Shown: positions 11,253-43,523, counted from the stretch's first letter. The stretch is 64,000 bases of DNA from an uncultured Planctomycetia bacterium (GCA_964430735.1 CAYSFB010000002.1:222027-286026); one strand, 5' to 3'. Numbers and translations: made by a program. The notes: generated by a model from the letters alone, not told the origin.

Positions 11253-11762
11253 ATGAAGAAACTAAATATTGCAGCATTAACAACTCTCGCCCTTTTCCTG
11301 ACGGTGCCGGCCCTGGCCAATAACACCACCGTCAGCGTCAACGTCTCCTGCACGATCCTCCCCTTATTTGAGATGGAAGTGATCAGCCCCGTCAACGGGA
11401 TCGAATTCGGCGCGATCCAAAAGAATCCGGACGCCAACGTAGATGTCAGCGCGCCGGAAATCACCATCCGCGCCAAGACCAATATGGGCCAACCCTATAT
11501 CATCAAGCACGAACTTCTGACGCCCCTCGCCAGCGATAACGGCGCAATCCTTCCGGACGGCTCCATGAGCGTTGATGCCACCAGCGGCAACGGCTCAACG
11601 GCGCAAGGCCAGGCGGTCGGCACCGACCCGGAGGTTTTGTACCAATCCGACGCCAACGGCCAAAGCGATACGATTACGGCACGCTACAACCTGAACGTGC
11701 ATCCCGATCAGGACGCCGGTCAGTACCAGTCCAAACTGCTCTATACGATTGTGACGGCCTAG
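11253..11762 (+). CDS. Secreted spore-coat-protein-U (SCPU)/Csu-pilin-like subunit, 169 aa
   Basis: Signal peptide MKKLNIAALTTLALFLTVPALA. N-terminal TVSVNVSCTILP matches the SCPU V-x-a-x-V-x-x-C-x-i motif. C-terminal GQYQSKLLYTIVTA matches the SCPU G-x-Y-x-(S/D)-x-x-T-(Y/F)-x-I motif. RBS AAGGATGGG. Confidence 0.6.
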   Translation: MKKLNIAALTTLALFLTVPALANNTTVSVNVSCTILPLFEMEVISPVNGIEFGAIQKNPDANVDVSAPEITIRAKTNMGQPYIIKHELLTPLASDNGAILPDGSMSVDATSGNGSTAQGQAVGTDPEVLYQSDANGQSDTITARYNLNVHPDQDAGQYQSKLLYTIVTA

Positions 11763-11775
11763 CGGACGCTAGGTT

Positions 11776-12570
11776 TTAAGCGGAGACGGGCTCGAGACGA
11801 ACCGAACTTCCCTCGCGGAAGCTTCGGGCATCGCCCTCGAGGATGGAAGCGGTCGAGATACGCTCGTACAATGTTCCGATTTGAACCCTGCCGATCTTGC
11901 GATCCCCTGCAAATAAGTCGAATTTGGAATCCTGCTTGAGGCCGTTCTGCGAGCCCTGGCTCAGCACCACAAAACGGTGCTGTTCGTTCACGGTCAGGAC
12001 CTGGGCGCCGCTCTCTTTGAGTGAATCGAAGAATTTGGTCGGAGCGGGCGTCGCCACCGGCGCGGCCGCAATCGCGGCCTGCTGCATGACGGCCGGCATC
12101 GCCTGCTGTTCCACCTGAACCTGCCGAAGACCGGCGGCCGGGGCCTTCATCATGGCTGCGGCGGAACCGGCGCTCATCGGGCTTTGGGCCGTGATGTTGC
12201 GCAATTCGTTCTGAACCCCGTCCCAGGCGCCCGGCTGCTGGGTCCGAACCATCACCTCGCCCAGATCAACCGAACCCGAACCCGAAAGAAGTTTGATCAT
12301 CTCGGCCAGCAGACGGCGGATATGCTCGTCGCGCTCGCCCATCTGCTGGATCAGGAAACGCTTTTCGTTATTGGCCGCTTCGGCTTCCTGTTTCGCTTCG
12401 GCGAGGTCAGCCTGGCTCTTCACGAGCTGTTCGGAGACGGTTTTTAATCTTTTTTCAGCCTGGAGACGGATCTGTTTTTCGTATTTCCAGAAGAAGCCGG
12501 CGGAAAGAATGAGGACGATCGGAAGGATGCGGGCGATCATGAGGTAGGACGACCGATTCATCAATGACAT
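11776..12570 (-). CDS. Membrane-anchored coiled-coil protein with a small C-terminal beta domain; pilus-locus accessory protein of unknown function
   Basis: N-terminal TM helix ILPIVLILSAGFFW. Coiled coil QIRLQAEKRLKTVSEQLVKSQADLAEAKQEAEAANNEKRF. Ala/Gln-rich linker. It ends 31 nt downstream of the 12602..15526 outer-membrane protein gene on the same strand. Confidence 0.55.
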   Translation of the reverse strand: MSLMNRSSYLMIARILPIVLILSAGFFWKYEKQIRLQAEKRLKTVSEQLVKSQADLAEAKQEAEAANNEKRFLIQQMGERDEHIRRLLAEMIKLLSGSGSVDLGEVMVRTQQPGAWDGVQNELRNITAQSPMSAGSAAAMMKAPAAGLRQVQVEQQAMPAVMQQAAIAAAPVATPAPTKFFDSLKESGAQVLTVNEQHRFVVLSQGSQNGLKQDSKFDLFAGDRKIGRVQIGTLYERISTASILEGDARSFREGSSVRLEPVSA

Positions 12571-12601
12571 GCTCCTTTATATCACCCGCTCAGGCCTGTG
12601 G

Positions 12602-15526
12602 TCAAGAAACGGTGACCGGCAAGTCCTCGGAGCGCTGCGCCGGCGCAGCCGTAAACGTGAGATCCTTTGCAAAATCCGTCGTATAACCCGGCGCGGATCC
12701 GGGAACCAGCGTGAGCGTGTGCGTTCCGGCGGGAACGCGTTCGAACAAATAATATCCCTCGTCGTCCGCTTCAGCCTCCAGCGCGCCCAGTCGCACCTTC
12801 GCCTTCGCGACACCGGCCTCTTCCTTTTCCGCGTGGTTATTGCCGTTCGCGTCGACAAAGACGCGGCCGTTCACCGTGCGTTCGGCGGTCACCGCAAAGT
12901 CGAACCGGTACTGGACGCCCTCGCTCAACTCCAGCTGCTTGCGGATGGAGCCGACCGGCAGGTACCCGATGGGCAGCGACTTCAAGTCCAGTGTCATCGC
13001 GTGCGGGCCGGTCGCGACTTCGTCGAACCGGAAACGCCCGGACGCGTCAGAAACGCGCTGTTCCTTGCCGTCGAGGATGACTTTGACGCGGCCGACGGCC
13101 GTGTCGGTCGGATCGTACTTGCCGTTGCCGTTCAGGTCGTTGAACACAAGGCCCGCGATCGACGAACGCGACACGAGGCCAAAGTCCACGGACTTTCCGG
13201 CTTCGGCCAGTTCGACGTCGCGGCGCAGCGACCCGGTGACGGTATGTCCGTACGGAATTTTGTTGGGATCCAGGATGATCGTGGCGCGCTTGCCCCCGAT
13301 CGACGGCGTCTGGTAATTGCCCTGGGCGTCCGTCGTCACCTCCGTCCCGTTCGCGCGCACGATGAGGCCCGGCACGCCCGCTTCTTCCGGCTGGCGGCGT
13401 CCGTCGCCGTTCTTGTCCAGGTACACCGCGCCGAAGAATTTGGCCTGCGGCTCCCACCGGATCCCGGTGTCGTAGAGATACCGGACGCCGGTGACGATTT
13501 CGGCTTCGGCGCGCGCCTCGTTGATGCGGTTTTCGCCGCGCATGGCCGCGTACCGGCCGTCCAGGAAGAACTCCATATTCTCGAGCGTGTACGTCACCGA
13601 CCCCTGAAGCTCGAAGCGGTCTTCGCCGATCATGAAGCTGCGAAGGGATTCCGTCTCTTCCTCGTCGGTGTAACGCGCCGTGAGATCGGTCGTGAACGGC
13701 GTGTCCGCCAGCCGCGACCGGCGCGAAATCGCATACACCATCGACCGCGGGTGCGACACATCGTGGTTCAGGGTTTCTTCGAGCAGACTGATGTTGTGCT
13801 GATACGAAAAATACGTGTCCTTGAACAGCAGCGTCTGCATGCCGAGTCCGAGCGTGTTGCGGCGGTAGTTTGACTCCGGGTTCGACAGACTCTCGGTGTC
13901 GTCGTTCGAGAACCGGCTGTACAGCGAAACGCGGCGGTCGCCGATCGGGATGCCCTGCGTGTACGTGAGCGCCTGGCTCTTGGTGCGGTACGGGGAGATG
14001 AGGGCCGTTTCCTCATAATCCTTGAGGTCCGCCTGCAGCGACGACAAAGACGAAATCCGCCACTGGAGACTCGCGTCCTGCCGGGTGTTGAACCGGTCGT
14101 ACTCCGACGGCAGGAAAAACTGCCGGTCGCGGTACACGTCGAGCGCGAACCGCGCGTTGACCGAATCCGAAATATTCCACAAGAGGTCCGAGTTGATGCC
14201 CTGCTCGCCCTGGCCGCCGGGGTTGCCGACGACGGTGAAAAAACGCTTGGATGTGTCGCGCAGCTCGGACTTGAACTGCAGCCCCGGATAACGCCACGTC
14301 CCCGCGACGCGGTTCGAAAAATGGTCGCTGTCGTATCCCGTGTGGGTCGTCACGCCGAAATGGTCCGTCACCTTGTAGGCCTGGTCAAATTCAAAAGCCA
14401 TGTCGTTCAAGTCCTCCACCCGCGACTGGCCGTGCGCCTGCACGTAACCGAAGCGGTACTTGGCCGCCGGGTTGAGTTCGTAATCCACGAACCCGCCGCC
14501 CGCGTACGAATCGAGCGTCTCCTGCCCTCCGCCGAGACCGGTCGTCCCGAGCGTTCCCAGAATGCTGGTGAGTTCACGGCCGTAAAACGCGGTGTAGATA
14601 AACGGCTTTTTTTTGGGACGGTGATCCCATTGGACGCCGCGGAACCGGTACTGGGGCAAAATGAGCATGTCGGTCCTCATCTGCGTGTCGATCATCGACA
14701 GATCCGCGTCCTCGATCGCACCGTAATGAAAATCACTGATCCGCGCGGAGATCTGGCTGAGCTCGGGCTTGTTGTCGATCTCGCGGATTTCGGCATTGCC
14801 CGAAAATGCGCCGACCGGCGTGTCGCCGGTGACCTTGAAGCCCTGGCTGTAAGCAAGCGAGCTCTGGGCCAGCGTTTCGAAGTCGTTGCCCTGATAGTAC
14901 TGGGAACGGTTGTTGGTGTATTCGACCTTGAAGCTGTCGGCGCGTTCGATACGCTCTTCACGGCGTTTGACATACTGGGCGATGGATTTTTGCGGGATGA
15001 CGCGGATTTGGAGCGTCACGCGTCCTTCGACTTCCCAGATATGGACCACGGTGGTTCCGATCGCGGTGGCCTTCATCTGAAGCGCGCCCGGATTGATCAG
15101 GAAAAATTCGACTTTGTCTTCCGTCGTCGCGAGATAACGCTGAATGCCCCGGCCTTCGACCGTGGCGACCTGACCCAGCTCGAGGTCCAGCGGCCGCGTC
15201 ACGTTGCGAAGCTCGTCCATCGAGACCGTCACCGGATCCGGAACGCGGATGACCATTTCGTCCTGGTCGGCTTCGGTGGGCTCGAAGTATTTGGCGATGG
15301 GTCCGGAGGACTTCGTCTTGGTGCCTTCAAGAAACCCTTGAGGCCGAGTTTCGGCGGCTTCTTCGGGACCGCCGGAAGAGAACCGGTCGTTCCAGACGCT
15401 GTCCATTTTAAAAAACCGGGTGTTGGAGTCGGCAAAAGCGGGCCTTGCGGCGGCCAGAACCAAAAGGAACAGGAACGCAGCCGTTGAAGGAAGAAACAGC
15501 CGGAGGGGCCGGTGTTGCTGGATCAC
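12602..15526 (-). CDS. Large outer-membrane protein (usher-like candidate) with three C-terminal Cna-B/CarboxypepD_reg-like repeats
   Basis: The likely start is a GTG whose TG overlaps the chaperone TGA stop (GAGTGATCC), immediately before the signal peptide RPLRLFLPSTAAFLFLLVLAAARPAFA. The track's ATG at 15625 would overlap the chaperone gene by 100 nt. The middle region is beta-rich. The C-terminus has repeats GLVFNDLNGNGKYDPTD...GRVKVIL, GRVFVDANGNNHAEKEE...AKVRL, and YLDKNGDGRRQPEE. Confidence 0.6.
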   Translation of the reverse strand: MIQQHRPLRLFLPSTAAFLFLLVLAAARPAFADSNTRFFKMDSVWNDRFSSGGPEEAAETRPQGFLEGTKTKSSGPIAKYFEPTEADQDEMVIRVPDPVTVSMDELRNVTRPLDLELGQVATVEGRGIQRYLATTEDKVEFFLINPGALQMKATAIGTTVVHIWEVEGRVTLQIRVIPQKSIAQYVKRREERIERADSFKVEYTNNRSQYYQGNDFETLAQSSLAYSQGFKVTGDTPVGAFSGNAEIREIDNKPELSQISARISDFHYGAIEDADLSMIDTQMRTDMLILPQYRFRGVQWDHRPKKKPFIYTAFYGRELTSILGTLGTTGLGGGQETLDSYAGGGFVDYELNPAAKYRFGYVQAHGQSRVEDLNDMAFEFDQAYKVTDHFGVTTHTGYDSDHFSNRVAGTWRYPGLQFKSELRDTSKRFFTVVGNPGGQGEQGINSDLLWNISDSVNARFALDVYRDRQFFLPSEYDRFNTRQDASLQWRISSLSSLQADLKDYEETALISPYRTKSQALTYTQGIPIGDRRVSLYSRFSNDDTESLSNPESNYRRNTLGLGMQTLLFKDTYFSYQHNISLLEETLNHDVSHPRSMVYAISRRSRLADTPFTTDLTARYTDEEETESLRSFMIGEDRFELQGSVTYTLENMEFFLDGRYAAMRGENRINEARAEAEIVTGVRYLYDTGIRWEPQAKFFGAVYLDKNGDGRRQPEEAGVPGLIVRANGTEVTTDAQGNYQTPSIGGKRATIILDPNKIPYGHTVTGSLRRDVELAEAGKSVDFGLVSRSSIAGLVFNDLNGNGKYDPTDTAVGRVKVILDGKEQRVSDASGRFRFDEVATGPHAMTLDLKSLPIGYLPVGSIRKQLELSEGVQYRFDFAVTAERTVNGRVFVDANGNNHAEKEEAGVAKAKVRLGALEAEADDEGYYLFERVPAGTHTLTLVPGSAPGYTTDFAKDLTFTAAPAQRSEDLPVTVS

Positions 15527-16329
15527 TCGATCGTAATCTTTTTTTCCTCGACCAGCAGCGCGCCTTCGCCCATGTCGAAGGTGAACACGCCGTCGTAAAC
15601 TCCGGGAGCGAGGCGGCCGGCCCATTCGGTTTCTTGCGAGACGACGGCTCCGGCGCGGGCGTAGATCGTGGTGAGTTTGCCGCGGGCTTTCACGCCGCCC
15701 TCGAAGTCCATCAGGACGAATTCACCTTCCAGAGCGACCGCCGTGTTGCCGGTGTTGTGAAAAACGGTCTTGATCACCGCGGGACGGTTGCCTTTTCCGG
15801 GTGTGAGGGTCAATTCCTTGATTTTTCCTTCGCGCCGGATCGAGCCGGCGATGTCGACGTAAAAGAGCGATCCGATGCGTCCCGCGACCGTGACGCTTGC
15901 GCCCTCTTCGTTCTGCCCCATGCCGAGCGACGTCTCGAAAAACAGGATCGAGTACCGGGTGCCCGTCGAAGCGTCCGCGTCCGCCGGAACCGCGACGGTG
16001 TAATCGACGGTCTGCCGGCCGAAGGGTTCGATGGTCAGCTGACTGGGGTTGTAGGTGATCCAGGGCGAGGCGCTGTTCGGAAGCGTGCCGGCCGGAAAAA
16101 AGTCCTTGTCGCCGTTTCCGGTGTCGAGATATTCCCAGTCTTCGGTATAAACCTTCACGGTCACCGTGCCGTCGGTCGGATTCGAAATATGGATCTGTCC
16201 GGTTTTGGTTTCTCCGGCGGCGGCCTCGATCCGCACGCGCGCCTCGTCGATCCGGATCGTCGCCGCTTGCGCGGACGAAGCAGCCCACAGCAGGACCGCA
16301 AAAACCGCAAATATCCGATGTCGCATCAT
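15523..16329 (-). CDS. PapD-like periplasmic pilus-assembly chaperone
   Basis: Start chosen at ATGATG after a GGAG RBS, giving signal peptide MMRHRIFAVFAVLLWAASSAQA. The track's longer ORF starts at 16428. N-domain pattern RIDEARVRIEAAAGETKTGQIHISNPTDGTVTVKVYTEDW and IGSLFYV resembles PapD/FimC (..RVIF...L.I.N......L.Q.W...KLFYRP). It has two Ig-like halves. Confidence 0.55.
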   Translation of the reverse strand: MMRHRIFAVFAVLLWAASSAQAATIRIDEARVRIEAAAGETKTGQIHISNPTDGTVTVKVYTEDWEYLDTGNGDKDFFPAGTLPNSASPWITYNPSQLTIEPFGRQTVDYTVAVPADADASTGTRYSILFFETSLGMGQNEEGASVTVAGRIGSLFYVDIAGSIRREGKIKELTLTPGKGNRPAVIKTVFHNTGNTAVALEGEFVLMDFEGGVKARGKLTTIYARAGAVVSQETEWAGRLAPGVYDGVFTFDMGEGALLVEEKKITIE

Positions 16330-16408
16330 GATGAATCTCCTTATAAAACTTAAGTGCATTTTAGCAAAAATACACCGGTCATACACGGAGCAAATCGGGT
16401 CCAAAAGG

Positions 16409-16443
16409 AGAAGCGCCCCCCGGACCATTCCGGGAGGCGCTTC
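16409..16443 (-). terminator. Strong near-palindromic hairpin followed by a short U-run after subunit gene A1; candidate attenuating terminator ahead of the chaperone gene
   Basis: GAAGCGCCCCCCGGA-CCAT-TCCGGGAGGCGCTTC forms a 15-bp stem with one mismatch. On the minus strand it is followed by CCTTTTGG. It lies 52 nt after the A1 stop and 80 nt before the chaperone start. Confidence 0.4.
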
Positions 16444-16494
16444 TGGGTTACCCCCAGGGCCGCGGTTGCGGCCGAAGGAGAGAGTGGAGTTGCG

Positions 16495-17094
16495 TTAGGC
16501 CAGTGCGATCGTGTAGGTCGCCGAGGCGCTGTAGCTGCCCTGAGCCTGATCGAGCAGGATGGGCTGCCAACCGGTGAACGGAGGAGTGACACCGCCGCCG
16601 CTGATACCGTAAACGAGCTGGATCGTGGCCGCAGTACCCGCCGTGTTGGAGGTGTAGATCGTGGTGTTGTTCATCACCGCGTTCTGACCGCCGGCCGGGA
16701 ACACGTCACCCGTGATGTCGTTGTTGCCCGACTTGGCCGAAACCACCGTGCAGACCATCGCATGAGGAAGGGTCTGGGCGCCATTGGTCAGAGCCGGCAT
16801 CGTCGCCTTCACCGTGTAGGCACGGCTGGACGTGTTCGTGGACAGGTACACCGTGTAAGGATCCGCACCGCGCATGACACCGTTGACCGTATCACGGACC
16901 AGCTGGCCGAAGGGCATCGACGAACCGAGATTCGCACCGGTGGGAACACCGTTCGCATCCAGCTTATAGGTGGCCATCGTGATGTCGAGGACCTGATCCA
17001 CGCTCGCCGCAGCCGTCACCGTCTGGGAAGTGGCCGCCAGAGCGGGCATCGAGATCGCAAGAGACGTCGCAAGAATCGCAATTACCTTCTTCAT
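16495..17094 (-). CDS. SCPU/Csu-like secreted fibre subunit, type A (copy A1)
   Basis: Signal peptide MKKVIAILATSLAISMPALA. C-terminal GSYSASATYTIALA. About 50% identical to 18179..18781. GGAGG RBS. Confidence 0.6.
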   Translation of the reverse strand: MKKVIAILATSLAISMPALAATSQTVTAAASVDQVLDITMATYKLDANGVPTGANLGSSMPFGQLVRDTVNGVMRGADPYTVYLSTNTSSRAYTVKATMPALTNGAQTLPHAMVCTVVSAKSGNNDITGDVFPAGGQNAVMNNTTIYTSNTAGTAATIQLVYGISGGGVTPPFTGWQPILLDQAQGSYSASATYTIALA

Positions 17095-17146
17095 ATGAAC
17101 CTCCGTTATTCTTTAATGCCTGATTTTTTAACCGCTTAAATTGGGT

Positions 17147-17194
17147 ATAAAAAACCGGGCTGCCTAACCGTTTGATTGGCCTTGGCAGCCCGGC
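17147..17194 (-). terminator. Hairpin plus U6 (intrinsic-terminator-like) 53 nt upstream of the A1 start; candidate leader attenuator, or a terminator for B1
   Basis: Minus strand reads CCGGGCUGCC-N20-GGCAGCCCGG-UUUUUU. A putative sigma70-like promoter (TTGATA-N17-TATACA) lies further upstream at about 17380-17420, immediately after the B1 stop. That promoter would put this hairpin inside a ~250-nt 5' leader. Confidence 0.4.
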
Positions 17195-17421
17195 TGACCT
17201 TGAACACCTCAAGGTTCCTGGAGCTTTGCGTCCCACCCTTACGGATGGTTTGCCTTTTCAGTCCCGTATTCGTCTTTTGAATGAACCGCTTTGCTTACGA
17301 ACCGGACGAATATCTGTTTGAAGTCTACCCTACGCGATACGAGATTTCAAGAGTCTACAGAAACTTTTTTTATATGTTATATGATAAATGTTTGTATAAA
17401 TGTCGATTAACACGATATCAA

Positions 17422-18027
17422 TTAAGCGGTCAATTCGATCTGAAAGGTAATGGTCGAAGAGTAGGTGCCGCCGGCCTGGTCAAAAGGGACGAATTCCGTG
17501 GCGCCGGCATTAGGATCGTTGGTGATGGCGTAGGTAAAAGCGACCGGGGTATAGCTGCCGGCCGGTTCACTCTGATAGATGATTTTGTTGTTGGCGATGA
17601 AGCTTCCGCGGGTACCAATGGAAGCGCCGGCAGGATAAGCTTGGCCGTCCTTATTGACGGGCCAAGGAGTCACGATGCAGGATCCGGCCGGAAGGGTCTT
17701 GGTGCCGTTGCTGAGGGCCGTCGCGGACTGGGTGAGGCGGAAGGGGCGGCCGGAAGAATTGGGATGTAGATAAACGTCGAAGTAATTCTCCCCTCTCATC
17801 GGGCCCTGGCCGGCGTCGGCCTTAAGGGTGCCGAAATTCATGGCGCTGGCGCCCCAGTTCGTCACAACCCCATCCTTATACTGGCGGATTTCGACGCCCA
17901 ATTCCAACACCGACTGGACCGTTGCCGAAAGCGGCACGGTGACCGAGCCTCCCGCCGCGTGGGCGGAAGCAGCCAGGAACAGCGAGGCTGCGAAGAGTTG
18001 GAGGGTTTTGAGCGTCTGCTTCATCAT
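17422..18027 (-). CDS. SCPU/Csu-like secreted fibre subunit, type B (copy B1)
   Basis: Signal peptide MMKQTLKTLQLFAASLFLAASAHA. C-terminal GGTYSSTITFQIELTA. About 60% identical to 18848..19480. Confidence 0.6.
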   Translation of the reverse strand: MMKQTLKTLQLFAASLFLAASAHAAGGSVTVPLSATVQSVLELGVEIRQYKDGVVTNWGASAMNFGTLKADAGQGPMRGENYFDVYLHPNSSGRPFRLTQSATALSNGTKTLPAGSCIVTPWPVNKDGQAYPAGASIGTRGSFIANNKIIYQSEPAGSYTPVAFTYAITNDPNAGATEFVPFDQAGGTYSSTITFQIELTA

Positions 18028-18098
18028 GACTTCCTTGGTTGAAGATAAATCCTAACGGAAATCTACATGACGCAGGGACCTGTTTCAAGACCGTCCCA

Positions 18099-18136
18099 AA
18101 ATAAAAACACCCCCGGGGTCGCCCCCGAGGGTGTTT
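18099..18136 (-). terminator. Rho-independent terminator after subunit gene A2
   Basis: Minus strand reads AAACACCCUCGGGGGCGACCCCGGGGGUGUUUUUAUUUUGGG: a GC-rich stem followed by a U-rich tract. It lies 43 nt after the A2 stop. Confidence 0.65.
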
Positions 18137-18178
18137 AAAGTTCCGGAGTTTTTCCGAAGAAAACCCCGAATCGACCGT

Positions 18179-18781
18179 TTAGAGGGTCGCGATCGTGTAA
18201 GTGATCGTGGACGAGTAGCTGCCAGCGGCCTGATCCGGCTGCACGGGCTGGAAACCCGAGAACGGAGCGGCGCCGCCCGCGGCGAAGCCCGCGATACCGT
18301 ACCACATTTCGATCGTGGCGCCGGTGCCGGAAGTGTTCGAGCGGTAGATTTCGACGCTGCTCATGATCGCGTTGCGAAGCGAGATCATGGTGTCGCCGGT
18401 GATATCGTTGCCGAGAGAGTCCTTCGCCGAAACGATCGACGCACCCATCGCCGGAGGCAGGGTGTTCGCGCCGCTGGTGAGGGCCGACATCGAGGAAACG
18501 ATGTTGTACGGACGGCTGGACGTGTTGGCGCCCAGGTACACGGCGTAGTTCTTCGGGCTCACAAGGGCGCTGAAGCCGTTGTTCACGAGCTGACCGAAGG
18601 CCATGGAAGCCGCCGGGGTGGTCAAGGGCAGGTCGGTGCCGACAGCGCGCTCGAACACACCCATCGTCAGGTCAAGGGTCTGACCGACGCTGGCTGAAAC
18701 GGCAACGCTTTGGGTGGTGGCCGCGAACGCCGGCATCGTCATCGATACCGCCGCTGCAAGCGCGATAAGGGTCTTCTTCAT
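18179..18781 (-). CDS. SCPU/Csu-like secreted fibre subunit, type A (copy A2)
   Basis: Signal peptide MKKTLIALAAAVSMTMPAFA. C-terminal GSYSSTITYTIATL. Paralogue of A1. Confidence 0.6.
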   Translation of the reverse strand: MKKTLIALAAAVSMTMPAFAATTQSVAVSASVGQTLDLTMGVFERAVGTDLPLTTPAASMAFGQLVNNGFSALVSPKNYAVYLGANTSSRPYNIVSSMSALTSGANTLPPAMGASIVSAKDSLGNDITGDTMISLRNAIMSSVEIYRSNTSGTGATIEMWYGIAGFAAGGAAPFSGFQPVQPDQAAGSYSSTITYTIATL

Positions 18782-18847
18782 TTCATTCCTCCTGGTGTAC
18801 TGACTAAGGTCCGTGACTGTTTAAAACAAACTTTTCCGAAACGGCCG

Positions 18848-19480
18848 TTACGATGCCAGCTCGATCTGGAACGTGATCGAGGACAGATAATTGCCCCCCG
18901 CCTGGTCCGCAGGGACGATCTGCGTCGATCCCAGCCCGCTGTCGCTCGTCACCGCGTAGGTCATCGCCACCGGTGCATAAAGCCCTGACGGGCCGCTCTC
19001 GTACAGAACTTTTCGCGTCGAAACAAAACTTCCTCGGCTGCCGATCGTCGCGCCGGACGGATACGCGGCGCCGTTCTTGTCCACCGGCCACGGCGTCACG
19101 ACACAGGCGCCGGCAGGGATCGTCGTCGTCCCGTTGCTGAGAGCCGCGGCGGCCTGGGTCAGCCGGTAAGGCCGCTGGGACGAATTCGGGTGCAAATAAA
19201 CGTCAAAGTAATACTCGCCGCGCATAGGGCCGTTCGTGACGTCGCTTTTCAGCAGGCCGAAGGCGATCTGCGATGCGCCGTAGTTGATCACGGTTCCGTC
19301 TTTGATCTGACGAATCTCGATCCCCAGCTCCAGCTGGGACTGAATGCTGGCCGACATCGGAACCGTGACGGTATCCGCTGCCAAAACGCATGCGCTGCTG
19401 TTCAGAAATAAGCTGAAGGCAGCAATTCCGGAACAGATTAAAAAAGCTCGATTAAAAGGGGTCAACATTAGCTTCATCAT
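18848..19480 (-). CDS. SCPU/Csu-like secreted fibre subunit, type B (copy B2)
   Basis: Signal-peptide-like N-terminus. C-terminal GGNYLSSITFQIELAS. Shares the internal motifs MRGE(N/Y)YFDVYLHPNSS and TPWPV(N/D)K(D/N)G with B1. An AT-rich promoter-like region lies upstream at 19481..19612. Confidence 0.6.
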   Translation of the reverse strand: MMKLMLTPFNRAFLICSGIAAFSLFLNSSACVLAADTVTVPMSASIQSQLELGIEIRQIKDGTVINYGASQIAFGLLKSDVTNGPMRGEYYFDVYLHPNSSQRPYRLTQAAAALSNGTTTIPAGACVVTPWPVDKNGAAYPSGATIGSRGSFVSTRKVLYESGPSGLYAPVAMTYAVTSDSGLGSTQIVPADQAGGNYLSSITFQIELAS

Positions 19481-19612
19481 TCAATTTGGAGATAGGGCAT
19501 TCTACTGCTTCGCCCCAAAAATAACAAGAAAATCTATTTTCTAAATAGTCATGTTATTTGGATAAATACTAAACTCGGTCGGAGGGATATTGGGGGTCAA
19601 ACAGGCTGCGAA

Positions 19613-20998
19613 CTACGAGAGAGAAGAGAGGGAGTACGTGGTCTCGGAGGTGTACTCGCCGCCGCTGGTGTCGCGGGGAAGCGTGAGGGTGTAATCGATC
19701 ATAAAATCGTCCGAACTGCCTTCCGAATCGGAAGTAAAGATGGCGGTGTCCCCTGCCTGAACGGGCTTCACGCTCATGACGGCCATTTCGCCCGTCCGGG
19801 CGCCGCTCATCACCAGCGTGAAGTTGTCCGGCGGCAGAATGCGGCCGCTTTCGTTGGTGAAGAGGCGCGACACTCGCTGAATCACCTGGTAGCGCTGCCC
19901 CGTATTGTTGTGGGCCTGAATATGCACCCGCCGAGTCTGCGCATCCCCTTCGTTCTTGAATTTGCCGAAGTTGAGGCCGCCGGCTGATTCATGCTCCACG
20001 TCGAGATAAAACAGGGTTTCGATTTCGAGGTCCAACGGCACCGTCACCGGCACGGCGAAGTCGGCCGATGCGTCGGATTCGACAAAGAATTCGATCGTGG
20101 ACCGGTACGGCCCGGCCGTAGCGGAAGCCACTTCTTCGCCGGTCCGGTACGCCACAGTAAAGGAGGCGGCGGAACCAGCGTCATCCGATTCATAAACCAG
20201 CGTCTGAGTTGTCGACAGCGGCTGCTCCTGTGCGACCACCTGCCCGGCATCCGCACGGGAGGCCAGCGCCAGGATGCCGCCCTCATTCATAGCTTGGCCC
20301 ATGGGACCGGACAGGCGGTCCGTCAGCCGCTGATACACCCGGTAACGGCCGCCGAGTCCGGCTCCGATGCGCACTTCGAGAGCGCCCGTGCCTTCCGGCC
20401 GCTGGCGCGTGATCCGGCCGAGACTCAAGGAGGATCCGCCGTTGACATTTTTGACGTCGAGGAAAAAGTCGGGACGAACTTCGGCGGTCACCTGAAGCAC
20501 CCGCGTCACCGTGGAGGCGCCTCCGTCGACGGGCTCCATCTGATACACGAGCTCGGAGCGGTAAACGCCCGCGGCATCCGTGGGTTGGGATTCGAGCGCG
20601 AAGACGAGCGCAAATGTCTCGGCCGAACCGCCGTTGTCGGAATCGAAGATCACCGTCTGACCGGGTTCCAACGCCGTCGGAAAAATGATCCCGAGACGCC
20701 CCCCGACCGAGCTGGGGCTGAACACCTTGACCGCTCCCGGAGACAGGGTCTGGCCGCGCTCATTGAGGAAAGGGCTCATCTGCTGCTGGACGATCCGGTA
20801 GCGCCGGCCCTCGTCGTTGGCGACCGTCAGTGTCACTTCTTCGTTGCGGGTGGGCTGGCCGGGTTTGGCCGGGGTAAAACGGACATCGCGTCCCCCGCGG
20901 TCGGGAAGGACCGAAAAGTCGAACTGCGCCCATGCCGTCTGGGCAAAGCCCGCGCAGGCGCACAGCAGAAGCAGGAGGGATTTGAAAGGAAGCTTCAT
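19613..20998 (-). CDS. Secreted protein built from three tandem SCPU-like domains; candidate tip adhesin or pre-polymerised subunit
   Basis: Start at MKLPFKSLLLLLCACAGFAQTAWA after an AAGG RBS; the track ORF starts 12 codons earlier. There are three ~150-aa repeats. Each carries an RYR(I/V)(V/Y)Q motif and ends in an SCPU-like G-x-Y-x-S motif (AGVYRSELVYQME, AGPYRSTIEFFVE, GGEYTSETTYSLS). Confidence 0.55.
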   Translation of the reverse strand: MKLPFKSLLLLLCACAGFAQTAWAQFDFSVLPDRGGRDVRFTPAKPGQPTRNEEVTLTVANDEGRRYRIVQQQMSPFLNERGQTLSPGAVKVFSPSSVGGRLGIIFPTALEPGQTVIFDSDNGGSAETFALVFALESQPTDAAGVYRSELVYQMEPVDGGASTVTRVLQVTAEVRPDFFLDVKNVNGGSSLSLGRITRQRPEGTGALEVRIGAGLGGRYRVYQRLTDRLSGPMGQAMNEGGILALASRADAGQVVAQEQPLSTTQTLVYESDDAGSAASFTVAYRTGEEVASATAGPYRSTIEFFVESDASADFAVPVTVPLDLEIETLFYLDVEHESAGGLNFGKFKNEGDAQTRRVHIQAHNNTGQRYQVIQRVSRLFTNESGRILPPDNFTLVMSGARTGEMAVMSVKPVQAGDTAIFTSDSEGSSDDFMIDYTLTLPRDTSGGEYTSETTYSLSSLS

Positions 20999-21041
20999 GA
21001 CTACAACCTTACCTTGTAAAAGGCCGGCTTGCAAGGGAGGA

Positions 21042-23897
21042 CTAGAATTCTCCGTCGAGGCTGAAGCGGAACAGATGCTCCGTGTCGACCGTGGGAAGCG
21101 AGAAGGTAGTGACGGAATAGGCGGACACCGGAAGCGCGTCGGAGCCTTCGTAGAAGGTCTGGCCGAACACGCCGTACTCCATGGTCAGACGCGTGTTGGT
21201 GTTGATCCGATAACGCAGACGCGTGTAAATGTTGTGGTTGTCCTCGAATTCAAGCTCGGTGTAACCGGACGCGATCAGCTTGGGGATATCCCCCAGATGG
21301 CTGTGGGTGTAATCGAAGAAAGCCGACCACCGGTCGTCGATCTGCCAATCGATGCTGATTCCCTGATGTTCGACGTTATCGTCGATCGGACCCCAGAGCG
21401 TGTACGTGTTCTGCGCCGCGTGGAAGATGAACTGCAGGTCTTCGGTATGGCGGTACGTGATGCGCTCCTTGACGATCGAGAAGTAGTCGTAGGGAGGCAG
21501 GTCAAAAATGTCCTGACGGTACAAAAACGCCTGGTTGCGGTACAGCCACCAGCTGGGCGTGTTCGGGTCCTGGAACATCGTGGTCGCGTACACGTTGTTG
21601 AGCAGGCCGCGCGGAAAGTCCGGAATGTCATTGGTGTATTCGAAGGTTCCGGAGAGCGTCCACTGATGGGTCGGCTCCCACTGGAGCCCCTGGCCGAAGG
21701 AACGGCGGTTCGCGTTGAGACCCGGATCGATCATGCTGTTCTCGTAGTAGATCCCCTCCTTGAGCGCAGGGTCGTTCAGCGCCGGCGAGTTGAAGCCGGA
21801 GATAAAAGGCTCGCGGTCGCTGAGCGTCTTGGGAAGGATGTGGAAACGCATGAAGTTCTTGAACGTCCAGTCCTGCGCGAACTTCCAAGTGGTCTCGTCG
21901 CGGATGACGTTTTCGATGAAGCTGTTGGAATCGGTGTCGCGGACGTGGCGCAAGTCGAACAGGTTGTCCACGCCTTTGTCCGGGCTCGACGTCGCCAGAT
22001 TCAACCGCGCGACATAACGGCCGTAATCGACGCCGGTTCCGATCTTAAACGGTTCGACGTCGGGCGGAATCTTCGCCCAGGTGATGTGCGTCCCCCAGAA
22101 TTCGTCGTCCCGGAGCGAAGTGTAATTGGACAGCGTTTCTTTGAACTCCGTGTCCACCCACGTGAAGTCGCCGTTGACACGGGTGATGCCGGATTTGGAA
22201 TCGCCGACGTGCGAAACGAATCCGCCCACATAAGCCTGGCCTTCGTAAGCCGTCTGGAACGAGCTCAAGCGGTCGAGGTCGTCGCGCGAACCGGCCATCT
22301 GGCCGTACATGTAATCGGTTTCGTTGGTGTAATACTTGGTGTCGATCGAAATCACCTGGTTGTACGCGTCCGGTTCCCGGTCGATCAATCCCACCCGGTA
22401 GGTGTAGGTCGATCCGAGCATCCACTGCTCGGTGACCTGATGCTTCAGCCGCACCACGCCCGGAATGTTATCGAATTCCTGATAATCGTCCCACAGGCCG
22501 TACCGGGACGCGATCATCATTCCCAGATAAGTTCTGCCGAAATCGGCTTCGACCGCACCGCCGCGGAGCAGCGTCAGGTAATTGCCCTCGGAATCCTTGG
22601 CATAAAACGCTTCTTCGTCGCTGTAATAGCCGCGGCGGATCACCGGAGACCGGGCGATCGGCACGCCGATCGGGTTGAACTTTTGAAGCGGCTCCCACTG
22701 TTCCAACCACGCCGAGTGCTCCCAGAAGTCTTTGCGGTTCGACAGCTGCAGCGGATCGTCCGTCGTCATCACCTGGTTCTGATCCGCCAGCGCGAAGAGC
22801 CGCACATGCCAGATGTCGCCCTCGTGATCCCACCAGGCCTTGCGCAGCGGACGGAACTCGTAGTCGATATCCTGGGCCGGCACGTTGTACGTGTTGAAGT
22901 TGCTGCCGATCCCGAACGCGTCGTAAATACCGTGGACGGTGTAGGGCTGAGTGGCGCCGTTTTCGGCCTCGAGCTCCGGCGTCGCCATGGAATTACCGGC
23001 ACGGCTCTTGACGATCGTGGGGATCGTGGAGTTGTTGGGGCCCCAGTATTTCTGTTTGATGCGGAAGGAATCGGCTCCGCCGACGCTGGGGACTTCGATT
23101 TCGCTGGTCTGACCCACATACGACCAGGGATCGGCGACGATCTGGACAAAAACGGAATCCTGCTTCGTCACCTGCGAGTCGATGTCGAGACGGTACTGGC
23201 TGTAAATCGCCGGATCGAAGGTGTTGTACTGGCGGTCGCCGAACAGGTAGTGGAAGTCGCGGTCCTGAAGGTCGGAGTTGGAATCGTTGAGCGAAAAGTT
23301 CCGGTTGCGGCCCGCGCCGAACGCCGCGCGGTAAGTTCCCGAAACGCGCGTGCGGGAAGCGATTTCGCGGTCGATCGCGTCCATGTCTTCATAGTTCTGG
23401 TCGATCACTTGCTTGGGATCGGGCGCAGGCACGGCGGCGGCAGGCTTGGCGGCGACAGGATTGACTGCGGCCGGCCTGACTGCGGCCGGGGCCTGGACGT
23501 TGCGGACCGGAGCGGATTCCGTCGCCGGACTCTTGGCCGGCGTTATATTAGAGGAGGAGGTGGCGGCTGTCGACTTGGGCGCAACCGCGGGCGATGCTGA
23601 TTTGACCGAAACCGGCGTACCTTGGCTTGCAGCCGGCGCGGAAGCGGTTACCGCGGGCTTGCCAGGCTGTGCCGCGGTGTGTTCGGGCTTCCAAAATGCG
23701 GCTTCACGCGCGCGCTTGAGATGATCCTGAATTTTGGAATCGAGGTCGTTGAGCTCTTTATCGAATTCTTCGAACTCGGCGTTGGATTGAGCCGCTGAGA
23801 CGGGAGCGGCACCGACTGCCTGCCACAGGAAACAGGCCGCCAGCAAGAAGCTGAAAGATTTGAGCGGACGAATGGAAAAAGAAGTTCCGGAGTTCAT
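21042..23897 (-). CDS. Large outer-membrane beta-barrel protein, ~951 aa, with an N-terminal coiled coil and an Ala/Pro/Ser-rich linker
   Basis: Start chosen at MNSGTSFSIRPLKSFSFLLAACFLWQAVGAAPVSAAQS (signal peptide). The track's 23941..24071 extension would overlap the upstream gene. The C-terminus ...FRFSLDGEF ends in Phe, as outer-membrane barrels usually do. The protein is rich in aromatic/Gly beta-strand patterns. Confidence 0.55.
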   Translation of the reverse strand: MNSGTSFSIRPLKSFSFLLAACFLWQAVGAAPVSAAQSNAEFEEFDKELNDLDSKIQDHLKRAREAAFWKPEHTAAQPGKPAVTASAPAASQGTPVSVKSASPAVAPKSTAATSSSNITPAKSPATESAPVRNVQAPAAVRPAAVNPVAAKPAAAVPAPDPKQVIDQNYEDMDAIDREIASRTRVSGTYRAAFGAGRNRNFSLNDSNSDLQDRDFHYLFGDRQYNTFDPAIYSQYRLDIDSQVTKQDSVFVQIVADPWSYVGQTSEIEVPSVGGADSFRIKQKYWGPNNSTIPTIVKSRAGNSMATPELEAENGATQPYTVHGIYDAFGIGSNFNTYNVPAQDIDYEFRPLRKAWWDHEGDIWHVRLFALADQNQVMTTDDPLQLSNRKDFWEHSAWLEQWEPLQKFNPIGVPIARSPVIRRGYYSDEEAFYAKDSEGNYLTLLRGGAVEADFGRTYLGMMIASRYGLWDDYQEFDNIPGVVRLKHQVTEQWMLGSTYTYRVGLIDREPDAYNQVISIDTKYYTNETDYMYGQMAGSRDDLDRLSSFQTAYEGQAYVGGFVSHVGDSKSGITRVNGDFTWVDTEFKETLSNYTSLRDDEFWGTHITWAKIPPDVEPFKIGTGVDYGRYVARLNLATSSPDKGVDNLFDLRHVRDTDSNSFIENVIRDETTWKFAQDWTFKNFMRFHILPKTLSDREPFISGFNSPALNDPALKEGIYYENSMIDPGLNANRRSFGQGLQWEPTHQWTLSGTFEYTNDIPDFPRGLLNNVYATTMFQDPNTPSWWLYRNQAFLYRQDIFDLPPYDYFSIVKERITYRHTEDLQFIFHAAQNTYTLWGPIDDNVEHQGISIDWQIDDRWSAFFDYTHSHLGDIPKLIASGYTELEFEDNHNIYTRLRYRINTNTRLTMEYGVFGQTFYEGSDALPVSAYSVTTFSLPTVDTEHLFRFSLDGEF

Positions 23898-23940
23898 GGA
23901 TATTGAGAATTTTACAACAGTGTTCGGAATAATGCGATAA

Positions 23941-25890
23941 CTATCTATCGTCAAAAGGGTTAAAACCCTTCCACGCAAAAATGCCGTACGCCGTGCCCGC
24001 GACGGAACCGGTGCGGTTGCCGGCCGGCGTACGCCAGCCGTGGCCCGTTTCGACGTCTCCGGCAGTGGCATATGGCAGACATCCGCGGCCCTGGCCGACG
24101 CGCGACAGGCTCGAGATGATCATTTTTTGCAATTCGTTGAGATAGAAGTTGATTTTGTCCCGGTAATACGCCGCTTTTTCCGCGTTGCCCGCCGCTTCAA
24201 AATATTTTTCCAGAATCCGGAACGTGACGACGGCCTGCGCCGTCCACTCGGACGACACGACGCCGCCGCGGCCCTGGTTCTGCGGCTTGGCGAAGTCGAA
24301 TCCCGTGACGCGCACCGAGCGTCCGTCAGGCCGGTCAAAGTTGACCTCGACGCGGCAATGCTCTTCCGCGAATTCCATGATCCCTTCCGGGTCGAACTGC
24401 GCTTCGGCCAGCCGCGCCGGGCCGATCGCAGCGATCGACCAGCTGAACGTGTCAGTCGCAATGGTTGCGTCCCCTTTACCGCGCTTGAACGCGCCGCTCG
24501 TGCGGTCGGCCGCATGCTTCATCAGCCACGCGAACAATTCCTCCTGCGCCTTGAGATAACGCGCGTCCTGCGTGAGCCGGTGCAGCATCCCGAAAAACGC
24601 GTACGCGTCCAGGTTGTGCTCGGTGCTGAACCACTCGGTCTTCGGCCCGCCGCGCAGTCCGCGCTCCGGGTCGCGCGCCTGCAGCTCAAGCAGCCAATTC
24701 CCGATCGACTGCGCCAAGCCCTGAAACGCGGTGTCGCCCGTCATCCGCTGGTATTGCAGAGCGGCGATGCCGATCCAGACGTTGGGACCGACGTGCACAT
24801 TCCACTCGACCGGCTCGCCCGAGGGAGCGTCGTACGACGAGATATAAGCTCCCTCGGATTTCTTGGCGCGATCCCGGTAAAACGTCAGAATGCGACGCGC
24901 GTTGTCATTTTTTTGAAAAAGTGTGAACGCGATCGCCGCGACGGCCTGGTCATAGGTGTACGCGATCCCCTCGAGCTTCGGATCCCCTTCGTAGCTGGGC
25001 AAAAGACCTGTCTGCGTGTTCGCGTGGCGCTCAAGCCAGGAAACAAGCTGGGTGAGAACGGCTTCCTCTTTAAGACCCGAGGATTCGGACGCGGAATGGA
25101 GCGTGACGCGTCGGTCGGCGCTTTCTTTCTGGATCAGCGTGAGCTGGTTGCGCAGATCACTCTCGCGCTTGAGCGCCGCTTCGAGTTCCTGGTGAAAAAA
25201 TTCCGCCTGGTCTTCCGTCACGCCCTCCGCCGACATCGCCTGCGTGCTGCGCGCCTGCTGTTCCTTGGCCGCCTTGAGATCGAGCGCGAGTTTGCGCTGG
25301 CGCGACGCCATTTCTTCGAGCCCGCGGATGAGATCGTCGCGCCCTTCGGCCGACGTGACGATCGAAGAGACGAGGCGGCGGTTTTCCATCAGCAGATGAA
25401 TCTGGTTGAACGCCTGTCCGACGACGACCGCGCACAGGAACAGCACCGTGCCGATGAAAAACCGCGGGATGAAGCGGCGGATGCGCGCGTAACGAAAGAT
25501 TTTTTGGGCGACCCAGGATTCGGCGGTTTCGTACTGGACGCCGACCAGGTGGACGGAGCGGCCGTCTTCGTCTTTGCGGGAGAGCCATGCGACATGCGAA
25601 GTGACGGCGATGGGTTTGGGCCGGAACGGGGCGTGAACCAGGAGATCGAGCGTTGCCTGCCGCGATTCGAGGTCGGCGGCTTCGGTCGGCGGAAGCGAAC
25701 GGAATTCGAGCATCATGCCGCCAAGACTGACGTTGCGCGTAAAGCCCTGAAGCGAAACGGACGGCGCGGACTGACGGGGATGCCGGAGAACCATCTCGAC
25801 GGGAAAAACGGTGTCCATCCGGACATACCGGCGGCGCTCGGGTCCGGAGGCGTTGGGGTCGATCGCGCGCGGCTCGTCGGAGGTCGGCAT
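23941..25890 (-). CDS. PilZ-domain (c-di-GMP receptor) protein fused through one TM helix and a coiled coil to an (alpha/alpha)6 glycoside-hydrolase-like periplasmic domain
   Basis: PilZ motifs RRYVRMDT and NVSLGGMMLEF (RxxxR ... D/NxSxGG). TM helix FFIGTVLFLCAVVVGQAF. Coiled coil at residues ~180-260. The C-terminal 380 aa have a six-hairpin glycosidase-like pattern (GIAYTYDQAVAAIAF, WIGIAALQY, NLDAYAFFGM). The exact GH family is unresolved. Confidence 0.6.
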   Translation of the reverse strand: MPTSDEPRAIDPNASGPERRRYVRMDTVFPVEMVLRHPRQSAPSVSLQGFTRNVSLGGMMLEFRSLPPTEAADLESRQATLDLLVHAPFRPKPIAVTSHVAWLSRKDEDGRSVHLVGVQYETAESWVAQKIFRYARIRRFIPRFFIGTVLFLCAVVVGQAFNQIHLLMENRRLVSSIVTSAEGRDDLIRGLEEMASRQRKLALDLKAAKEQQARSTQAMSAEGVTEDQAEFFHQELEAALKRESDLRNQLTLIQKESADRRVTLHSASESSGLKEEAVLTQLVSWLERHANTQTGLLPSYEGDPKLEGIAYTYDQAVAAIAFTLFQKNDNARRILTFYRDRAKKSEGAYISSYDAPSGEPVEWNVHVGPNVWIGIAALQYQRMTGDTAFQGLAQSIGNWLLELQARDPERGLRGGPKTEWFSTEHNLDAYAFFGMLHRLTQDARYLKAQEELFAWLMKHAADRTSGAFKRGKGDATIATDTFSWSIAAIGPARLAEAQFDPEGIMEFAEEHCRVEVNFDRPDGRSVRVTGFDFAKPQNQGRGGVVSSEWTAQAVVTFRILEKYFEAAGNAEKAAYYRDKINFYLNELQKMIISSLSRVGQGRGCLPYATAGDVETGHGWRTPAGNRTGSVAGTAYGIFAWKGFNPFDDR

Positions 25891-25906: not shown

Positions 25907-25924
25907 TGGTATAATGCGGCCATG
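25907..25924 (+). promoter_or_regulatory. Extended -10 promoter (TGgTATAAT) only 6 nt upstream of the ATG of the DUF481 gene; predicted leaderless mRNA
   Basis: ttGGTATAATgcggccATG. There is no Shine-Dalgarno sequence. The spacing from the -10 element to the ATG fits a transcription start at or next to the start codon. Confidence 0.4.
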
Positions 25925-41977: not shown

Positions 41978-42427
41978 CTAGGATGATGGCTGGGTCGCGA
42001 GCCTTTGACGGAGAGAATCGGCCTTAGATTTGAGAGCCTTTTGGCGATCTTCGTTCATTGTGGCAATCGAGGCGTATTCGTAATTGTCAGCGGCGTTATT
42101 TAGATCGCCCATCTCTTCGTAGGTTTGGGCGATGTAATCGAGAGCAATGGCCTGCGCAGGTCTGATTAGTGCATATTTTTTAAGGGCTTCTGTGTAAGCG
42201 CTAATCGCCATTTCATATTCACCAGTCTTTCGATAAGCATCACCCTGATGTTTTAACTCCAGGAAGCGGTCGGCTTGTTCATAATTATTTCTAAAATGAC
42301 TGGTCTTTTGATTTAAGCCGGTCGGTAGATTGGATTTTTTGTCGTTAGTCTGACTTCCGCTTGTGTTGCACCCAGCAAGAGCGCATAACTGAATCAGAAG
42401 TAGTCCGTGTATCAACCGATTTTTCAT
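41978..42427 (-). CDS. TPR-repeat lipoprotein, 149 aa
   Basis: Lipobox LCALAGC. TPR-like helices (YRKTGEYEMAISAYTEALKKYA...). Low-GC codon usage. Confidence 0.6.
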   Translation of the reverse strand: MKNRLIHGLLLIQLCALAGCNTSGSQTNDKKSNLPTGLNQKTSHFRNNYEQADRFLELKHQGDAYRKTGEYEMAISAYTEALKKYALIRPAQAIALDYIAQTYEEMGDLNNAADNYEYASIATMNEDRQKALKSKADSLRQRLATQPSS

Positions 42428-42440
42428 ACTGCCCTCTTGA

Positions 42441-42650: not shown

Positions 42651-42755
42651 AGTATCCATTAATTATCAAATAATTTTCAATACTTAACTTTAGCTACAAT
42701 CTATTACTTGTGGTACTTGAGTCTTTGGCTACAAGATGTGGAATCAAGCCCAATT

Positions 42756-43520: not shown

Positions 43521-43523
43521 GGC

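Follow-up and report, generated by a model that had tools for sequence, protein, structure and literature searches.

What do the genes at positions 11253-25890 of a 64,000-nucleotide stretch of DNA from an uncultured bacterium (GCA_964430735.1 CAYSFB010000002.1:222027-286026; "the window" below means this whole stretch) build, and do they belong to the chaperone-usher pili? A preliminary description had read the block as a fimbrial locus of the archaic (sigma) Csu/SCPU type and, more broadly, as an undescribed surface module with the operon logic of chaperone-usher systems. We found every open reading frame (ORF) in the place assigned to it, and the broader claim held: the block encodes secreted beta-sandwich subunits, a periplasmic protein with two immunoglobulin (Ig)-like domains, and a large outer-membrane protein coupled to it. 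The Csu/SCPU assignment itself did not survive, as the SCPU, PapD and Usher models failed and hhalign comparisons with FimC, FimD and FimA gave probabilities below 2%. The core cassette consists of I, the subunits H, G, F and E (plus A), D and C, and is a previously undescribed module; full-text searches on DUF4402, on Omnitrophota pili and donor strands, on WxLIP and on DUF916, together with the Omnitrophota survey, brought up no account of such a system. Reading its sequence patterns by analogy with known pili, we put the probability at about 0.55 that the cassette builds a surface fiber by donor-strand complementation, from components that have no sequence relation to those of classical systems.

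The genes follow one another on the minus strand in the order K, J, I, H, G, F, E, D, C and B, and A then stands on the plus strand; beyond A come M (11047-7712, minus strand) and then gltX and tRNA-Gln. Family assignments were made by hidden Markov model (HMM) scans of the products against Pfam and NCBIfam. The genes of the cassette are:

11253-11762, plus strand: A, divergent subunit paralogue of 169 amino acids (subunit HMM E-value 4.7e-33).
12602-15526, minus strand: C, outer-membrane protein of 974 amino acids, the proposed export and assembly pore.
15523-16329, minus strand: D, periplasmic protein of 268 amino acids with two Ig-like domains, WxLIP/DUF916-like, the proposed chaperone.
16495-17094, minus strand: E, secreted subunit of 199 amino acids, encoded by the first gene 3' of a riboswitch.
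17422-18027, minus strand: F, secreted subunit paralogue of 201 amino acids.
18179-18781, minus strand: G, secreted subunit paralogue of 200 amino acids (subunit HMM E-value 1.7e-54).
18848-19480, minus strand: H, secreted subunit paralogue of 210 amino acids (subunit HMM E-value 5e-58).
19613-20998, minus strand: I, secreted protein of 461 amino acids from the ATG at 20998, with three tandem domains of the subunit family.

Proteins A and E-H, and likewise each of the three domains of I, proved to be paralogues within one unannotated family, with pairwise identities of 47% between E and G and 65% between F and H. An exhaustive HMMER search returned 421 cluster representatives of this family at E-values ≤1e-3, including three-domain members of ~460-500 amino acids, and when ten representatives were looked up all of the named ones were called "hypothetical protein". 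Residue conservation and family scans were based on 118 aligned members. The five secreted proteins and the fused three-domain protein had been taken for members of SCPU. The five secreted paralogues (A and E-H) and the three tandem domains, which the subunit HMM matched one after the other in I, were borne out, but their SCPU character was not: SCPU (Pfam PF05229) found no match in A, E-H or I at E-values ≤0.1, nor in the 118 members at E-values ≤0.01. Fimbrial and WxL models likewise matched none of the 118 (E-value ≤0.01), carbohydrate-binding-module families matched no subunit in the Pfam scans, those of the 118 members included, and DUF4402 matched one member of the 118 at an E-value of 1e-5. 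The C-domain model of the Pam pilin (NF058581) gave weak matches in A, I and 6 of the 118 members, at ~21 bits against a cut-off of 55 (E-value 2e-4 for A). Sequence searches of the Protein Data Bank (PDB) with the subunits yielded nothing significant, the profile of the 118 members did not find TLP-1b (9ikk) at E-values ≤10, and hhalign of the subunit profile with Escherichia coli FimA, a single-sequence template, gave a probability below 2%. We also considered the subunits as WxL proteins and rejected this; besides the negative WxL scan, the WxL chain of 9i25 was absent from the fold matches.

An AlphaFold2 model of E, computed on the 118-sequence alignment, was a beta-sandwich (predicted local distance difference test score, pLDDT, 93.2) in which residues 21-36, directly after the signal peptide, were not assigned as strand. 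Foldseek returned no significant PDB match for it, the best (E-value ~1e-2) being rod-assembled FimA and PapA and the TasA fiber. The sequences themselves are more telling. Ahead of the first core strand runs a strict hydrophobic ladder, with positions 26, 28, 30 and 32 hydrophobic in 97, 87, 96 and 99% of the 118 members and Ala at position 30 in 82%. The most conserved stretch across the same members lies at the C-terminus and comprises Q183, G186, Y188 and the last strand.

An alignment of the mature subunits with the three domains of I located the N-terminal segment of ~14 residues in E, F, G, H, A and the second and third domains of I, where it takes the form of linkers resembling an N-terminal extension. 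The first domain of I is the sole domain without it, and mature I starts exactly at the first core strand of that domain. Tip subunits of chaperone-usher pili carry no donated strand. The segment's absence from this one domain fits donor-strand polymerization with I at the tip, and we propose from the sequence that I is the tip or initiator subunit, distal and first to be incorporated. PamT, the tip pilin of the Pam pilus, is likewise described as having no donated strand (bioRxiv 10.64898/2026.03.03.709456). The possibility that I is a lipoprotein was considered and rejected, as the Cys near its signal peptide is not conserved.

Protein D, described earlier as a PapD-like chaperone, does have the expected fold but not the expected family. 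It carries a signal peptide and no membrane anchor or C-terminal transmembrane helix, as expected of a soluble periplasmic partner in a diderm, and its AlphaFold2 model (pLDDT 90.6) has two Ig-like beta-sandwich domains, the first closed by a long hairpin (strands 124-139 and 145-160). Relatives were few (23 at E-values ≤1e-3). The D-family profile found the WxLIP of Enterococcus faecium in the PDB (9i25_C/9i1y; E-value 1.2e-4), and Foldseek placed WxLIP first at 3e-13, followed by the Vpr fibril and RbmA; dozens of chaperone-usher chaperones (CfaA, FimC, EcpB, SafB, CsuC, Caf1M, PapD) appeared at 1e-9 to 1e-7, with template-modeling (TM) scores of ~0.45. Weak matches to WxLIP_PGBD (DUF916, PF06030), all below the gathering score, were seen in 11 of 17 D homologues, and tblastn led to DUF916-annotated genes in Actinobacteria and to genes 27-29% identical on Deinococcus plasmids. 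PapD_N (PF00345) and PapD_C (PF02753) matched none of the 17 homologues even at E-values ≤10, DUF3324 (HBD) did not match D, and hhalign of the D profile with E. coli FimC (single-sequence template) gave a probability of 0.3%. Because the profile, Foldseek, DUF916 and tblastn matches agree and the PapD and FimC tests were negative, D stands closest to WxLIP/DUF916 and not to PapD. WxLIP is predicted to insert a strand of a beta-hairpin into the WxL protein that it binds (PMC10599100), and by analogy D may plausibly complement strands as well.

The outer-membrane protein C had been given as ~975 amino acids long and coupled to the chaperone through GTGA, and both points proved correct: it has 974 residues, and its GTG start overlaps the TGA stop of D. 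This 4-nt overlap recurs, as called, in two related loci (L013 and L014; L003-L020 are our labels for the loci of relatives compared with the window), and in the loci compared the C gene always follows the D gene. A signal peptide and an N-terminal domain resembling PF13629 ("pilus formation protein N-terminal") lead into a beta-rich core of ~520 residues, and three transthyretin-like domains of the SdrD_B/CarboxypepD_reg type occupy the C-terminus. PF13629 was detected in all 10 C homologues (best E-value 2.6e-6), as were SdrD_B and CarboxypepD_reg, and a PDB sequence search with C gave nothing significant. If the beta-rich core is an even-stranded barrel, all four of the other domains, one N-terminal and three C-terminal, would face the periplasm, an arrangement analogous to that of the N-terminal and C-terminal domains of an usher.

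Among relatives, I, subunit(s), D and C stand in this order in L004, L005, L006, L007, L013, L014, L016 and L018; L003 has D, C, B and A, and L015 a minimal set of subunit, D and C. The order subunit, D, C was kept in 9/9 distinct Omnitrophota-type loci examined, the minimal L015 among them. The host of the window (G+C ~60%) is almost certainly an uncultured Omnitrophota bacterium, because proteins 70-89% identical to those of the block come from metagenome-assembled genomes (MAGs) labeled Candidatus Omnitrophica or Omnitrophota. The records of L003 and L005, which hold near-identical or syntenic copies of the cassette, are titled "uncultured Planctomycetia" and the others Omnitrophota; the Planctomycetia titles are probably a binning or labeling discrepancy.

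Distant analogues, comprising a D-like protein, a large SdrD_B protein and small secreted proteins with pilin-like C-termini, were found in a Blastocatellia MAG and on a plasmid of a Deinococcus strain. The latter reads as follows:

L020, plasmid NZ_CP026517.1 of Deinococcus sp. NW-56 (cultured), ~310.3-315.8 kb: genes for a secreted protein of 292 amino acids, a D-like protein of 298 amino acids (HMM E-value 4.9e-49), a secreted protein of 190 amino acids with a pilin-like C-terminus and a protein of 1013 amino acids with SdrD_B domains, all annotated as hypothetical.

One member of the subunit family, P0209, stands alone at 10001-10654 of L019, a phage-like contig of 47 kb (JGI 3300063141) with many small ORFs and genes for YopX, SprT-like, Metallophos and dCMP deaminase proteins; the contig has no D or C gene. 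A tblastn search with this subunit homologue found no homologue among deposited phage genomes.

How the cassette might be controlled is suggested by the spacer between F and E. The preliminary description had placed the locus under second-messenger control through a PilZ protein. The link to cyclic di-GMP (c-di-GMP) stands, but its clearest form is a riboswitch directly upstream of E-D-C and not PilZ; this riboswitch had been missed, together with the terminator at 18105-18136 (minus strand) and a syntenic GH161 gene beyond the span then covered. The elements on the window and in relatives are:

17181-17264, minus strand: c-di-GMP-I riboswitch aptamer (RF01051), full length (model positions 1-87 of 87).
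17149-17193, minus strand: expression platform, with terminator stem CCGGGCUGCC/GGCAGCCCGG and U6.
17322-17350, minus strand: weak sigma-70-like promoter match (9/12) upstream of the riboswitch; the region holds no more such sites than expected by chance.
18105-18136, minus strand: very strong intrinsic-terminator-like hairpin directly 3' of G, with a 14-bp stem, 9 GC pairs and a T-run.
L005 13661-13999, L013 19163-19732, L018 13540-14017 and L014 13769-14110, all minus strand: mini-subunits.

The aptamer lies within the 327-nt F-E spacer and scored 57.4 bits against a gathering score of 35 (E-value 1.4e-8), a match to the Rfam model that establishes its presence upstream of E-D-C at the level of sequence. 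The unpaired position equivalent to G20 of Vc2 is a G here, presumably pointing to c-di-GMP over cyclic GMP-AMP (cGAMP). The 5' arm of the terminator, CCGGGCUGCC, lies inside the 3' strand of the aptamer and pairs downstream with GGCAGCCCGG. Because ligand binding would sequester this arm, we predict an ON switch, with the genes turned on at high c-di-GMP. Aptamers above the gathering score were also found upstream of subunit genes in L004 (two), L005, L006, L013, L014, L016 and L018, some of them matching the GGC and UAU variant models, and a hairpin overlapped the 3' strand of the aptamer in 8/8 instances, its stem sequence differing by locus; at least five U follow it in seven of them and four U in L013. 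No aptamer was found in the cassette-less locus L012, and in the window no further riboswitch was found upstream of H, F or A at E-values ≤1. Clostridioides and Vibrio are known to carry c-di-GMP riboswitches in front of pilus or adhesin genes. The switch resembles the c-di-GMP-I (GEMM-I) riboswitches of such genes in its full-length aptamer above the gathering score and its overlapping terminator, and differs in what it would regulate, an undescribed putative fiber module in Omnitrophota. The hairpin after G would divide the subunit genes among separate transcription units and may fix the stoichiometry of the subunits.

Relatives carry further riboswitches on the opposite strand after C, which precede the mini-subunits listed above. 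These proteins of ~87-113 amino acids are reduced to a signal peptide and the N-terminal strand (SKSVTVQVSCSIP...), followed by a short tail that ends in TVTA(L/V), and in L005, L013 and L018 each has its own c-di-GMP riboswitch. In the window, A occupies the same position and orientation. Because a mini-subunit could donate a strand without offering an acceptor domain, one may speculate that these proteins are chain terminators or anchors.

For the cassette as a whole we propose the following course of assembly. At high c-di-GMP, ligand binding by the riboswitch would block the terminator and turn on E-D-C. The subunits would be exported by Sec, each as a beta-sandwich with a free N-terminal strand of ~14 residues, and D would cap and stabilize them in the periplasm. 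Translationally coupled to D, C would take the place of the usher, with its periplasmic N-terminal domain, large barrel and three periplasmic beta-sandwich domains. Protein I would enter first and form the tip, its second and third domains each preceded by a strand-like linker, and the single-domain subunits would then polymerize, the N-terminal strand of each inserted into the preceding subunit.

Around the cassette lie further genes, of which B, J and K had been counted as parts of the same system, J as a second giant outer-membrane protein and K as a PilZ-glycoside hydrolase (GH) fusion:

7712-11047, minus strand: M, cytoplasmic GH161 beta-1,3-glucan phosphorylase of 1111 amino acids, on the other side of the cassette.
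11776-12570, minus strand: B, 264 amino acids.
21042-23897, minus strand: J, porin-like outer-membrane beta-barrel of 951 amino acids, from the ATG at 23897 to ...DGEF.
23941-25890, minus strand: K, 649 amino acids, with PilZ, a transmembrane segment, a coiled coil and a periplasmic alpha-rich domain.

Several details of these genes agreed with what had been described. J has the predicted length of 951 residues and ends in Phe, and B, read from its sequence, has an N-terminal membrane anchor and a coiled-coil-like stretch. The PilZ half of K was secure (PF07238, 30.8 bits against a cut-off of 22.5; 5/5 homologues, best E-value 2.3e-11), but its GH half was not: against GH families the C-terminal domain gave only non-significant matches to GH76 and 4mu9 (E-values 0.02-0.4) and one weak alpha-alpha-toroid hit. 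B matched no family in the Pfam and NCBIfam scans and is present only in close relatives (L003, L004 and L016), to which full-length A is limited as well. Weak OMP_b-brl matches occurred in 9 of 22 J homologues, weak porin matches were seen in the PDB, and Usher matched none of the 22 at E-values ≤10; all J homologues with a source name come from Omnitrophota. M aligned with PDB 9qqk_A at an E-value of 3.9e-231 over residues 15-1107, which places it in GH161; it has no Pfam match, and the G+C content at third codon positions of its frame is 0.87.

M is conserved in L003, L005, L006, L012, L013, L014 and L018. In the window and in five relatives (L005, L006, L013, L014 and L018) the cassette has J on one side and the GH161 gene on the other. 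GH116 was called at the locus in L013, L014 and L018, and GH2 and ABC sugar permeases in L013. In L012, homologues of K, J and M (44, 40 and 46% identical) stand in the order K, GH116, J, M, gltX, with ABC sugar permeases, GH2 and GH94 as neighbors and with no subunit, D or C gene. Because they occur together there without the cassette, K, J and M are, judged by gene content, a flanking beta-glucan-utilization locus into which the cassette is set and not part of the assembly machine, and the view of two giant outer-membrane proteins and the PilZ protein as one system had to be given up. Divergent from K, at 25922-26905 on the plus strand, is a gene for a DUF481 outer-membrane protein whose N-terminal region weakly resembles Leptospira LA_0442-type domains (NCBIfam E-value 2e-6).

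Elsewhere in the window, 44563-55572 (minus strand) encodes a protein of 3669 amino acids with RHS repeats and an ILEI domain. Its downstream end overlaps and adjoins a stretch of low G+C at 42000-46000 (0.47-0.50 against ~0.60). At 41978-43421 (minus strand) lie genes for two TPR-like lipoproteins (149 and 165 amino acids), each preceded by a copy of a repeated element with the ORF "MNCDINNEKSSSWPASINRVLSP..." at 42345-42551 and 43257-43421.

Several points weigh against a donor-strand fiber. The fiber is a prediction from gene content and computation, with donor-strand complementation read from a sequence pattern and by analogy and the barrel of C predicted from its sequence. Usher (PF00577) matched none of the 10 C homologues at E-values ≤10, and hhalign of the C profile with E. 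coli FimD, a single-sequence template, gave a probability of 0.4%. The N-terminal segment of the subunit has high pLDDT in the monomer model, and by that model it may pack onto its own domain. The WxLIPs, the closest characterized relatives of D, have been described as surface anchors and binders of WxL proteins and not as pilus chaperones (PMC10599100). The embedding in a glycan locus, finally, fits a non-fibrous surface complex equally well, and such a complex for glycan capture is the main rival, which we nevertheless judge unlikely. The small beta-sandwich proteins and I would then bind glycans at the cell surface, with a function comparable to that of SusE/F or of the Csc/WxL complexes of lactobacilli. 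C would export or anchor them and D would serve as scaffold or holdase, and the beta-glucan that they capture would pass to the porin J, to GH116/GH2 enzymes in the periplasm and cytoplasm and to the GH161 phosphorylase. Three tandem beta-sandwich domains, as in I, recall multi-domain glycan binders. That J and the GH161 gene flank the cassette in the window and five relatives, with GH116, GH2 and ABC sugar permeases at some of them, speaks for this arrangement, as do the WxLIP/DUF916 relatives of D, given that Csc clusters with DUF916 were proposed to serve carbohydrate acquisition (PMC1534035). The lack of any carbohydrate-binding-module match argues the other way, and the subunits are not lipoproteins. 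Nor has the conserved alternating N-terminal strand, missing only in the first domain of I, an obvious role in monomeric binders, and in L007 and L015 the cassette lies outside a recognized glycan context. ON-control by c-di-GMP, moreover, is typical of adhesins and matrix and not of catabolic genes.

The same control would suit matrix production, and RbmA and the TasA fiber are among the fold matches of D and E. The cassette might accordingly encode a secreted scaffold for matrix or biofilm and do without a dedicated usher, its subunits self-assembling outside the cell like TasA or archaeal bundling pili, with D an RbmA-like matrix protein and C a porin for general secretion or anchoring. We hold this to be improbable: the strict translational coupling of D and C and the conserved order of subunit, D and C point to a joint machine, and in a diderm the subunits must cross the outer membrane, for which C is the only candidate encoded in the cassette. 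That the cassette is a true archaic (sigma, Csu/SCPU) or classical chaperone-usher system diverged beyond easy recognition seems very improbable indeed. In its favor are the operon logic, the fold of D as compared with CsuC, FimC, PapD and Caf1M, and the single DUF4402 match, and presumably the C-terminal G-x-Y...T-x-T motif of the subunits, which we take to resemble pilin C-termini. The sequence tests run the other way throughout, from the SCPU, Fimbrial, PapD_N/C and Usher scans of 118, 17, 10 and 22 homologues (subunits, D, C and J) to the single-sequence hhalign comparisons; WxLIP is a better match for D than any chaperone-usher chaperone, both in sequence and in fold, and C has PF13629 and transthyretin-like domains in place of the N-terminal, plug and C-terminal signatures of ushers.

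Assembly by donor-strand complementation thus remains our preferred reading, and it sets the cassette beside several known systems. With the classical and archaic chaperone-usher pili (Fim/Pap; Csu of Acinetobacter) it shares paralogous secreted subunits, a periplasmic two-Ig protein folded like FimC, PapD, CsuC and Caf1M, a large outer-membrane protein, and an alternating N-terminal strand on the subunits that is absent from the presumptive tip protein. No part is a member by sequence, however. C has a PF13629-like domain at its N-terminus and three transthyretin-like ones at its C-terminus, three subunit domains are fused in the tip candidate, and the predicted control is by a c-di-GMP riboswitch. 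The WxL/Csc clusters of Firmicutes (WxLIP = DUF916-DUF3324; PDB 9i1y/9i25; PMC10599100, PMC1534035) are closest in D, by profile, fold and weak PF06030 matches, but D lacks the C-terminal transmembrane helix, its partners lack WxL domains, and here the system resides in a diderm and includes an outer-membrane protein of its own. The Pam pilus of candidate phyla radiation (CPR) bacteria is a donor-strand pilus outside Proteobacteria with FimC/PapD-like two-domain chaperones (bioRxiv 10.64898/2026.03.03.709456), and A, I and 6 of the 118 family members show faint similarity to its pilin C-domain (NF058581). Pam pilins are built as N-terminal domain, linker and C-terminal domain, whereas the subunits here have a single domain; Pam chaperones, to which D is linked by analogy, are membrane-anchored, unlike D; and Pam has no outer-membrane component because CPR bacteria are monoderm-like. 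The orphan pond-water fibrils TLP-1a/b (CryoSeek, PMC11494351; PDB 9ikk) also have a single-domain secreted protomer of ~200 amino acids, whose N-terminal strand is unstructured in AlphaFold2 monomers and donated in the fibril (PMC11494351). The profile search at E-values ≤10 gave no sequence-level link between the two.

On the current view, chaperone-usher pili form a single family whose hallmarks are PapD-type chaperones and ushers. In the cassette the assembly logic of that family would rest on a periplasmic protein of the WxLIP/DUF916 type and on another outer-membrane protein, and the cassette connects the Gram-positive WxL/Csc clusters, the Pam pili of CPR bacteria and the Gram-negative chaperone-usher pili, which have so far been treated separately. 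To our knowledge, no member of the phylum Omnitrophota has been cultured. The c-di-GMP riboswitch, conserved and predicted to be an ON switch, offers a clean, testable regulatory handle, and the distant analogue in the cultured Deinococcus sp. NW-56 a route to laboratory work. From the position of the cassette inside a beta-glucan-utilization locus we speculate that the fiber may bind glucan or a glucan-bearing surface; the embedding suggests attachment to glucans or to glucan-bearing partner cells, which would be relevant to the host-dependent lifestyle proposed for Omnitrophota (PMC10066038). As a tentative extension, possible though doubtful, the cassette could represent a third, independent donor-strand fiber lineage of diderms, one that combines a WxLIP/DUF916-type chaperone, of an ancestry shared with the WxL clusters and perhaps with the CPR Pam chaperones, with a non-usher pore, and whose fiber would be a c-di-GMP-induced, glucan- or host-binding appendage of Omnitrophota nanobacteria. 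If so, this third lineage would tie the donor-strand systems of monoderms and diderms together and might supply the missing producers and assembly genes of orphan environmental fibrils such as TLP-1.

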